Positions 23,639-59,330 of a stretch of 64,000 nucleotides of DNA are shown here, in pieces. Below the pieces are notes generated by a model. The model searched no databases. It was not told the DNA's origin and saw nothing but the letters and a program-made list of their open reading frames with translations. Positions within the stretch are counted from its first letter, which is position 1. The number at the start of each line of letters is the position of its first letter. The DNA lies in the IMG/VR virus record IMGVR_UViG_3300023184_000035, positions 32,001 to 96,000 of that record; one strand, given 5' to 3'. The DNA comes from a virus. A program made the translations under genes and the position numbers.

Positions 23639-23697
23639 AGGCGTTTCCTTTGCAGGTTAAAATACTTATTACATGTGTTTGAGATATAAACTCCCAG

Positions 23698-34300: not shown

Positions 34301-34351
34301 TGGTGTTTTCCAAGAATTGTGTTATACTTATGCTTTCAACAAGGAGACCCT

Positions 34352-57197: not shown

Positions 57198-58010
57198 ATG
57201 ATACCCAAAACACCTAAACAACGCATCAAACACATCGTCAAGTGGATCCAAGACTATGCTCGCAAAGCAAAGATTAATACCTTGGTGGTGGGTATTTCAG
57301 GCGGCATTGACAGCTCAGTTGTGAGTGCCTTGTGTGCTCGAACTGGCTTGAAAACCATTGTGGTACAAATGCCCATTCGCCAGAATAAGAAACTGGACAA
57401 CTTGAGTTCAGCACACGCAGGCTGGCTGTTGAATCATGTGCCCAGCTTCAGCATCACGCACATGATCATGGATTTGACCCCAGTGTTCACAGCATTTGAG
57501 AAAAAGCTCACACCTTTTGGCGACAGTGAACTGGCATTTGCCAACAGCAGAGCCCGACTGCGCATGATGACCCTGTATCAAATTGCACAGAGTCATGGTG
57601 GCATTGTGGTGGGCACAGGCAACAAAGTGGAAGATTTTGGCGTGGGATTCTTTACCAAGTACGGTGACGGTGGAGTGGATATCTCTCCCATTGGTGACTG
57701 TTTGAAAACTGAAGTCTGGGACATGGGACGAGAACTTGGCTTGCTCCAGGAGATCATCGATGCCCCGCCCACCGACGGACTCTGGGCCGATGACCGTAAC
57801 GACGAAGATCAACTGGGCATGAACTACCCTGAACTGGAACGCATGATGAGCATTGACTTTTTGAAGCGAGCCAAGATCGTGGATTCAGACATGCCTGGCA
57901 GCGCCAAACTCAATGCTGACGATCGAAAAAAATTAAAACGTTATCAAGAACTACGTGCTCAGAACATGCACAAGATGATGTCTATCCCTGTTTGTACAAT
58001 GCCCCGTTAA
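57198..58010 (+). CDS. nadE: NH3-dependent NAD+ synthetase
   Basis: GISGGIDS, N.RARLRM, GTGNK.E, FFTKYGDG, PPTDGL. Confidence 0.95.
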   Translation: MIPKTPKQRIKHIVKWIQDYARKAKINTLVVGISGGIDSSVVSALCARTGLKTIVVQMPIRQNKKLDNLSSAHAGWLLNHVPSFSITHMIMDLTPVFTAFEKKLTPFGDSELAFANSRARLRMMTLYQIAQSHGGIVVGTGNKVEDFGVGFFTKYGDGGVDISPIGDCLKTEVWDMGRELGLLQEIIDAPPTDGLWADDRNDEDQLGMNYPELERMMSIDFLKRAKIVDSDMPGSAKLNADDRKKLKRYQELRAQNMHKMMSIPVCTMPR

Positions 58011-58085
58011 CTACAATGTTAATGGCAAAAACACACCATTTTGACAGTTTTTTGACAGCCTTACAGCTAGATCAAATAAGTAAAA

Positions 58086-58390
58086 GTGGTGGTAGAACAA
58101 CACATTGCAATCTAATAGGATCTTCTACTGCTGATTGGTATCTTGTCCAATTGAATAAAACAAGTACCCGTGACACCAAAAGAGGTTTGTCCAAGCCAAA
58201 TTGGTGTTCGAAAGAGACTCTCGGAAAGTCTCTTCGTTGACAACTAGAATTGGACAGGCTCATTTCTCAGGACGCGAGCTTGTCCCAAACGAGTATGCCA
58301 AGGAGGCCCGAGGTCTATCTATGCTCATCTCAACTGCACTTTTGTCAACGTGATCTACTCGGGACTCCGCGTATAGCCACGTATTGGCAA
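58086..58390 (+). ncRNA. candidate large structured RNA / leader of cell-wall hydrolase
   Basis: At least 5 long stems and a 9-bp potential pseudoknot; follows ATAAGTA. Confidence 0.55.
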
Positions 58391-58404
58391 GAAAAGGAAA
58401 TCAA

Positions 58405-58980
58405 ATGAAAGTTAATACAAATCGGCCCAATGCATTGGCATCGTGGTCATCTCGAGTTATCAAACTACTGGGACTGTTTTTGGTCATGCTGGTGGTTTGG
58501 AATGTGTGCCAAAGCAGATTGGCCTCACTACGAAGCGACCGGGCAGCCGGCATGGTGGGCTATGTGTCAGCAGAAGACAAATTACGACAATTGGATTGCC
58601 TAACCCGCAACATCTACTGGGAAGCAGCCTCAGAGCCGTTTGAGGGCAAAGTGGCAGTGGCGCAGGTCACGTTAAATAGAGTAGAGAGCGGCAGATTTGC
58701 CAACACTGTGTGCGGTGTGGTCTATCAAAAGAACGTGTTCTATGAAAAGGTAGTTTGCCAATTCTCGTGGTTCTGCGAAGGCAATCACAAGGTCCGAGCA
58801 GTGTATCAGCCCATGTGGCAAGAAAGCGAACTAGTGGCCAAAAAAGTACTATTGGAGAACTTCCGATTGCCCGGCATGAAAAATGCGTTATACTATCATG
58901 CTGACTATGTAAATCCCAACTGGCACAAAGCCCGAATTGACAAAATTGGTCGTCACATCTTTTATGGAGAAAAATCATGA
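58405..58980 (+). CDS. SleB-like cell wall hydrolase (Hydrolase_2)
   Basis: CL..NIYWEA..E, AVAQVTLNRV, CGVVYQ, CQFSW, YYHADYVNP.W, IGRHIFY. Confidence 0.93.
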   Translation: MKVNTNRPNALASWSSRVIKLLGLFLVMLVVWNVCQSRLASLRSDRAAGMVGYVSAEDKLRQLDCLTRNIYWEAASEPFEGKVAVAQVTLNRVESGRFANTVCGVVYQKNVFYEKVVCQFSWFCEGNHKVRAVYQPMWQESELVAKKVLLENFRLPGMKNALYYHADYVNPNWHKARIDKIGRHIFYGEKS

Positions 58981-59288
58981 ACGCCTGGCCCTTTAACTTA
59001 CAAATTGTTCGAGACTTTTTGAACAATCACCTGCACAAAATTTCAGCAGACACCCTGGGCTGGTTGGCAGCCATTGTGTTGCACTGTGCCACAATTCCTT
59101 CACTGCTGGCCTTGATGACTGGACTGAGTGATCGAGTGCCCAGCCTGGATGTGGTGGCGTTTCTTTGGGCAGGCCTAGTACTGCTGTTCCTGCGAGCCAT
59201 TGTGCTCAAAGATACCCTGAACATCATCACAATTGGTCTGGGGTTTATAGTGCAAGCCGGGCTCATGGCCCTGATCCTGTTTAGGTAA
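58977..59288 (+). CDS. 3-TM membrane protein
   Basis: Hydrophobic helices, ATGA-coupled to hydrolase. Confidence 0.7.
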   Translation: MNAWPFNLQIVRDFLNNHLHKISADTLGWLAAIVLHCATIPSLLALMTGLSDRVPSLDVVAFLWAGLVLLFLRAIVLKDTLNIITIGLGFIVQAGLMALILFR

Positions 59289-59330
59289 TACTTCAGTAGT
59301 ATTGACCAATAATTGCAATCCTGCTATAAT
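59285..59330 (+). promoter_or_regulatory. palindrome + early promoter
   Basis: GTAATACTTCAGTAGTA abutting TTGACC-17-TATAAT. Confidence 0.8.

Follow-up and report, generated by a model that had tools for sequence, protein, structure and literature searches.

A pseudoknotted RNA family ahead of the endolysin gene in freshwater jumbo phages: a candidate leader of the lysis mRNA

The 64,000-nt window (the whole stretch of phage DNA analysed here) contains, in the 394-nt spacer between an NAD synthase gene (57198-58010, PF02540) and a SleB-like Hydrolase_2 gene (ATG at 58405), a real structured RNA of an uncatalogued family, which is neither a chance fold nor a coding sequence. The family numbers about 70 phage contigs in IMG/VR and more than 69 contigs in metagenomes, has a fold with strong covariation, and is linked, among the matches listed, exclusively to an endolysin gene. 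We think it rather likely that the RNA is the cis-acting 5' leader of a two-gene lysis mRNA, gating its translation by sequestration of the SD and start codon; such a leader would probably control the timing of lysis protein synthesis. This reading is favored because the RNA ends at the SD without a terminator, because, among the matches listed, it is found only upstream of SleB-like genes, and because its 3' module can sequester the SD.

Genomic context

The source record is a 148-kb IMG/VR virus, ~42% complete, whose relatives are 200-365-kb contigs from lake metagenomes; the carrier of the leader is a freshwater jumbo phage. The preliminary description of this DNA had placed an RNA just after an ATAAGTA sequence and ending next to the SD of the SleB-like gene, and the region is indeed arranged in this way:

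58086-58404, + strand: structured RNA region, from homologs and covariation
58394-58407, + strand: SD (AAGGA, 58394-98) and ATG (58405-07) of the SleB-like gene
58405-58980, + strand: SleB-like Hydrolase_2 endolysin with an N-terminal transmembrane segment (PF07486, E 1.5e-25; phrog_938 endolysin, E 2.5e-20)
58977-59288, + strand: 103-aa protein with three hydrophobic segments, its start overlapping the SleB stop (ATGA)

The 103-aa ORF is conserved immediately 3' of SleB in 175 of 191 related loci. Its product has no match in Pfam or PHROG, and we infer that it is likely a holin of an unclassified family. Directly after it, a near-consensus sigma70 promoter (TTGACC-17-TATAAT with a TG extension, 59302-59330) opens the next unit. 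The overlap of the SleB and 103-aa genes, together with this strong sigma70-type promoter behind them, indicates that the spacer heads a two-gene cassette of endolysin and holin-like protein. The promoter is also one of the repeated early promoter units in the window. A terminator was sought between the RNA and the SleB-like gene, with none found, so that the RNA runs straight into the cassette. The leader RNA is single-copy in this genome.

Family size and distribution

Folding of the single sequence is only mildly better than that of shuffled ones (z of -2.2, and -2.3 for the reverse strand), and the case for an RNA therefore rests on its homologs. In seven close contigs, the spacer is 88-94% identical at the nucleotide level and the flanking proteins 74-88%. 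A 23-nt core motif matched 66 IMG/VR contigs, and a covariance model (R1) confirms 58 distinct IMG/VR members; two IMG/VR pattern matches (L192 and L220) were rejected by the model as chance. In metagenomes, where there are at least 120 motif matches, it confirms 69 of 80 loci among those listed, for a family of at least 69 metagenome contigs. A search with another, independent core motif brought in just two more contigs. A scan of GTDB genomes with the core motif gave 39 pattern matches, 38 of them chance by the covariance model; the only genuine member (L263; CAITCX010000170.1, 2370 bp) is a contig that had been assigned to a Dehalococcoidia MAG, most probably a piece of phage DNA binned there by mistake. 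With one real GTDB match, on a 2.4-kb contig, the family is taken to be phage-restricted. The spacer has no blastn match in the GenBank phage collection.

The linkage to SleB is consistent throughout. Of 60 unique IMG/VR matches, 57 have the start of a SleB-like ORF 110-196 nt past the motif, and so do all 53 metagenome members with enough flanking sequence, among the matches listed. Of the three remaining IMG/VR matches, one locus is cut at a contig end and two are chance matches. None of the IMG/VR and metagenome matches listed places a family member away from a SleB start, even though the linked hydrolases include some only 33% identical to the one in the window.

All 4227 models of Rfam 15 were run against the whole 64-kb window, with no match at gathering thresholds. 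A permissive search (57900-58500 of the window, and locus L165, 60-520) yielded only noise from eukaryotic lncRNA and miRNA models, at E 5-10. No description of this RNA was found in the literature. The preliminary description saw no hallmarks of tRNA, tmRNA, RNase P, or group I introns, in agreement with the finding of no tRNA, no tmRNA, and no Rfam match. It also proposed that the RNA was undescribed, a proposal that a lack of covariation in homologs or a match to a known Rfam family would have counted against; covariation in homologs is strong, and no family matched at either the gathering threshold or E<=10. A group I intron or self-cleaving ribozyme was rejected, there being no Rfam match and the element being intergenic, interrupting no gene. 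So was a small protein gene: in close relatives candidate starts are lost, frames are broken by stops, and single-base indels are present, while variable sites are spread evenly across codon phases (21/19/18).

Secondary structure and covariation

The element as a whole is 190-330 nt long in different members, and is made up of an optional 5' domain, a universal core of ~190 nt (Pa, Pb, Pc, and PKa), and a 3' module. In the window, these are arranged as follows:

58089-58131, + strand: P1 helix, 58089-97 with 58123-31, supported by covariation
58134-58164, + strand: 5' H-type pseudoknot, S1 ATTGG 58134-38 with CCAAT 58147-51 and S2 CTTGT 58142-46 with ACAAG 58160-64
58174-58206, + strand: P3 hairpin, CACCAA/TTGGTG plus GG/CC, with conserved loop TTTGTCCAAG at 58186-95
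58212-58234, + strand: Pa hairpin, 58212-18 with 58228-34, loop UCUCGGAAA; 99% paired, with 2-3 covarying pairs
58219-58313, + strand: PKa pseudoknot, Pa loop 58219-24 with the GGCCCGAGG strand at 58308-13
58235-58350, + strand: Pb long-range helix, 58235-43 with 58342-50, closing the core and stacking directly on Pa
58252-58285, + strand: Pc hairpin, GGACAGGCTC 58252-61 with GAGCTTGTCC 58276-85, inside Pb
58358-58368, + strand: CTCGGG.CTCC segment, at the site of the Pd hairpin of other members, with an anti-SD-like CUCC tetramer at 58365-68
58369-58388, + strand: 3' H-type pseudoknot, S1 GCGT 58369-72 with ACGT 58379-82 and S2 GCCA 58376-79 with TGGC 58385-88

In the covariance-model alignment of 58 core sequences, 89.6% of cells are paired, vs. 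78.9% after shuffling. The covariation score of 0.348 (0.171 shuffled) was reached by none of 500 shuffles, controls slid along the alignment scored at most 0.095, and 25 pairs show double changes. Two of the pseudoknot helices (PKa and 3' S1) and the helix closing on the SD lie outside the covariance-model structure, and their counts are therefore not fitted. An unfitted MAFFT alignment of the core agrees (87.1% vs. 78.0% paired; covariation 0.318 vs. 0.175). RNAalifold on the plain MAFFT alignment recovered Pa alone, because the variable stems are misaligned there, and an all-against-all scan of alignment columns was dominated by phylogenetic noise.

Within the core, covariation upholds the hairpin at 58212-58234 (Pa) that had been seen in the single sequence. 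The pairing of CGTTGACAA (58235-43) with TTGTCAACG (58342-50) also stands, as Pb: it is 95% paired, with one pair exchanging among AU (27-30 sequences), GC (12-15), and GU (10-13). It had been described as a pseudoknot linking two domains, however, and in the present model it is a nested helix. Pc shows double changes at all family pairs, and a CG to GC swap inside the close clade. PKa is 95-96% paired in 49-58 sequences; its strands are mostly invariant, with one covarying pair. The core junctions are highly conserved and unpaired, beside stems that covary freely, and a pyrimidine-rich single-stranded linker also lies within the core.

Downstream of the core, the Pd hairpin of other members (GCCCA/TGGGC type) covaries at five of five pairs. 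The clade of the window has instead the CTCGGG.CTCC segment, which is invariant and complementary to 58302-12. In the 3' pseudoknot, which ends 5 nt before the SD, all five S2 pairs and two of four S1 pairs covary (CG in 34 sequences, GC in 15).

The 5' domain is absent from some members, in which the distance from TAAGTA to the core is just 35-75 nt. Where present, it is 88.7% paired in a plain MAFFT alignment, vs. 76.0% shuffled, with 18 of 22 pairs covarying. A helix of 58088-58097 with 58123-58132 had been proposed here, and covariation bears out nine of its base pairs (58089-97/58123-31) as P1, with double changes at all eight column pairs tested (43 sequences, plain MAFFT). The 5' pseudoknot covaries at five of five pairs in S2 and two of four in S1 (for example CCGG/CCGG, CTGG/CCAG, and ACGG/CCGT). 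The hairpin first drawn at 58172-58208 is recovered as P3, at 58174-58206: even inside the 93%-identical close clade its stem (58174-79/58201-06) shows the compensatory changes CG to UA, AU to GC, and UA to GC, and distant members have analogous hairpins carrying the P3 loop.

Pc and the three pseudoknots (in the 5' domain, PKa with CCGAG, and the 3' H-type) are thus covariation-supported helices that the preliminary description lacked. Three pairings that it did contain clash with supported helices. The first, 58142-52 with 58248-58, is an 11-bp duplex invariant in eight close relatives, but it is not family-wide, and its strands covary with other partners, in the 5' pseudoknot and Pc. One other lineage has such a duplex at 11 bp and two at 9 bp, while elsewhere complementarity is at chance level (4-7 bp). 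In the second lineage (L165, L175, and L193) the 11-bp complementarity is of different sequence (GCTTGTGCCGT/ATGGTATGAGC), and each of the two is too long for chance. Going by the sequences, the duplex may be a lineage-specific alternative conformer, which would link a strand of the 5' pseudoknot to the junction and the 5' strand of Pc. The other two pairings, TGCCAA/TTGGCA and GGAG.CCCGAG/CTCGGG.CTCC, are present and invariant in the clade, but family-wide they are paired in 62% of cells, vs. 60.9% shuffled, and show no covariation. All three could be clade-specific alternative conformers.

Pairing of the translation start

The 3' module of most members has the order CUCC-[pseudoknot]-AAGGAG, and CUCC pairs with the SD in 41 of 58 MFE folds of this module. 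The CUCC-GGAG pairing shows no covariation in the 58-sequence core alignment, because both strands are conserved. Many members have TTG (UUG) starts. All three bases of the start codon are paired in 26 of 49 members, as against a mean of 11.4 (maximum 21) for shuffled sequences and 1 of 27 leaderless relatives. In several loci (L165, L181, L176, L216, and others), the first ~25 nt of the SleB ORF form a hairpin burying the start codon, with arms such as TTGAA..TTCAA, TGACT..AGTCA, and GAGAA..TTCTC; as the arms differ between lineages, this amounts to covariation inside the coding sequence.

The clade of the window is atypical in having neither Pd nor a start-codon hairpin, a weaker SD (AAGGA), and an ATG start. 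Its SD is predicted to be mostly unpaired (probability 0.09), and its CUCC is complementary instead to the upstream GGAG, in the helix of the preliminary description. For the family, predicted pairing of the SD and start suggests that translation initiation is repressed by default, as would suit a lysis cassette.

The ATAAGTA box and relatives without the RNA

Two conserved sequences precede the RNA, and the second of them recurs in the genome:

58018-58058, + strand: upstream box GTTAATGGCAAAAAC..ACCATTTTGACAGTTTTTTGACAG, invariant in eight close relatives
58076-58082, + strand: ATAAGTA box, conserved ahead of the RNA
23660-23669 (- strand), 34322-34331 (- strand), and 62737 (+ strand) of the window, and C1:120808 (+ strand) of the genome: other ATAAGTA boxes

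The upstream box is probably promoter or operator DNA, outside the folded RNA; related boxes are found before TAAGTA both in other family members and in relatives without the leader. TAAGTA itself is upstream in 62 of 64 metagenome members (among the matches listed) and in most IMG/VR members. A sigma70 scan at the leader gave no canonical promoter: the window has TTGACA-N17-AATAAG without the -7 T, and other members have no -35. From its position and conservation, ATAAGTA would be a -10-like phage promoter element, with transcription starting a few bases past it and the RNA 5' end set at about 58086-58090. The four other ATAAGTA sites in the 148-kb record lie 11-32 nt before start codons, several of which have an ACCATG-like context and no clear SD. 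The boxes probably represent a phage-specific promoter class; PHROG annotation of the genes behind them gives no indication whether it is a late one.

Most contigs with a NAD synthase-SleB gap of ~81 nt are relatives without the RNA. They keep the upstream box and have the sequence ...GAGTAAGTAAAACTACCATG, with TAAGTA 8 nt before the SleB ATG and no SD, and would, from this spacing, make a near-leaderless lysis mRNA. The arrangement is seen, for example, around 2880-3012 in L008, L013, L014, L017, L021, L025, and L028, and the box in leaderless relatives can be written as TTAATGGCAAAA..ACCATTTTGG, a covarying GGCCCGG/CCGG hairpin, and then TAAGTA. Two further loci (L047, 2530-2970, and L063, 2560-2975) have a gap of 414-440 nt that holds a small ORF instead of the RNA; by eye, its C..C..C...CP motifs suggest a Cys-rich ferredoxin.

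In a tree of SleB proteins, the leader is present with 57 of 111 sequences. Its presence changes six times on the best tree, and at least two changes are forced by well-supported branches. Since the same cassette is found without any leader in many close relatives, the RNA is dispensable.

Possible functions

If the RNA is a cis-acting leader, a possible mechanism can be outlined. From the start past ATAAGTA, the first ~320 nt, presumably continuous with the sleB message, would fold compactly into 5' domain (where present), core, and 3' module. Pa would stack on Pb, with Pc inside and the Pa loop knotted to the GGCCCGAGG strand. The 3' H-type pseudoknot would abut the SD, in most members with CUCC pairing to the SD GGAG around it, and in many members the weak UUG start codon would be held in a further hairpin. 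With the SD and start codon so engaged, the folded leader should hold translation initiation off. Initiation would then be released when some signal remodels the leader; a ligand or a protein might provide it, as might an event in folding or processing. The near-invariant core junctions and the pseudoknots look like a sensor, to judge from their conservation.

A more specific form of this explanation is a riboswitch for a metabolite or second messenger, which we regard as a tentative possibility: Pa, Pb, Pc, and PKa would be the aptamer, and the 3' pseudoknot and CUCC the expression platform. Conserved 5'-UTR structure beside an expression platform is the general mark of riboswitches, and here the core covaries and the 3' module overlaps the SD. 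The highly conserved, unpaired junctions beside freely covarying stems would be expected of an aptamer, as would the several pseudoknots, and the core is of a size typical of complex aptamers. Cell-wall hydrolase genes are, moreover, among the classic targets of the c-di-AMP (ydaO) riboswitch. A ligand might conceivably make the GGCCCGAGG strand change partner, from the Pa loop to the CUCGGG/Pd strand or back, freeing or trapping the SD; the alternative helix 58302-12/58358-68, which can form in most members (67.6% of cells), would do so at the expense of PKa and Pd and set the anti-SD free. This helix has no covariation, however, either family-wide or in the clade. Similarity to known aptamers was not found in Rfam down to E<=10, and the gene context gives no clue to a ligand, the NAD synthase neighbor not being conserved with the RNA. 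That the leader is a riboswitch class confined to jumbo phages, timing endolysin-holin translation by a host or phage metabolite or nucleotide messenger, is a speculation on the doubtful side.

Structure might also serve without any switch, as an mRNA stabilizer, a processing site, a ribosome standby platform, or a damper keeping translation low. The dispensability of the RNA in many relatives fits such a constitutive role, as do the pyrimidine-rich linker in the core and the fact that no alternative structure is supported by covariation. It is nonetheless unlikely: a ~190-nt core with three pseudoknots and near-invariant junctions is unexpected for a stabilizer or damper, and the fold persists among lineages with SleB identities of only 33-60%.

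An independent, possibly trans-acting RNA that merely shares the lysis promoter, for instance a processed, stable RNA acting as decoy or regulator of host or phage factors, appears quite unlikely. Its fold is large and ornate enough for this, its 5' domain is modular, and the whole element has come or gone in one piece in the stretch from the constant promoter box to the ORF. But it never occurs away from a SleB start among the matches listed, its 3' helices reach the SD, co-adapted start-codon hairpins lie inside the ORF, and there is no terminator.

Control of transcription, by a put-like RNA polymerase-modifying antiterminator, an attenuator, or a self-cleaving ribozyme, is very improbable: the pseudoknotted core does lie directly after a probable promoter and ahead of lysis genes, as late antitermination does in lambdoid phages, but the leader has no intrinsic terminator within it or behind it, ribozyme and other family models gave no match even at E<=10, and the cassette has only two genes before the next sigma70-type promoter.

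Comparison with known RNAs and significance

The leader reading can be set beside several known systems. The c-di-AMP riboswitch (ydaO-yuaA, RF00379) and the orphan lysM-type and NLPC-P60-type motifs are likewise structured, pseudoknotted leaders of peptidoglycan hydrolase genes, with a presumed cis action; the ydaO-yuaA model, whose architecture is pseudo-two-fold and includes conserved ligand pockets, gives no match even at E<=10, however, its helix plan is different, and the present family is phage-only. An H-type pseudoknot at the SD with a pyrimidine anti-SD is also found in the SAM-II (RF00521), preQ1-II (RF01054), and fluoride (RF01734) riboswitches, and control of translation initiation is the likely output here. 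In those, the small pseudoknot is the whole aptamer, whereas here it is the tail of a multi-domain RNA of ~190-330 nt without an Rfam match.

Among phages, mRNA structure at the start site restricts lysis-protein translation in the lambda S gene (the sdi stem-loop) and in MS2 (occlusion of the lysis gene). These are single hairpins without a conserved tertiary fold, unlike the large covarying family with three pseudoknots described here. GOLLD (RF01998) and ROOL (RF03087) are similarly ornate RNAs of phages, prophages, and lake metagenomes, but they are 500-800 nt long, free-standing, and not tied to a gene, while the present RNA is 190-330 nt, is fused to an SD, and matches neither model. The element resembles riboswitch-type leaders and belongs to none of the families compared.

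Large multi-pseudoknot folds with covariation support are rare, and most of those known are riboswitches, ribozymes, or RNP scaffolds. The present family is restricted to uncultivated jumbo phages of fresh water, where it is tied to the start of the lysis cassette. Because the leader alternates in evolution with a near-leaderless arrangement, these phages offer a natural with-and-without comparison for the translational timing of lysis, and the ~190-nt core is a compact candidate sensor RNA. Were it only a constitutive damper, the known regulatory RNAs of phages would still gain a well-defined family; were it a riboswitch, an RNA sensor would decide when the cell is lysed.
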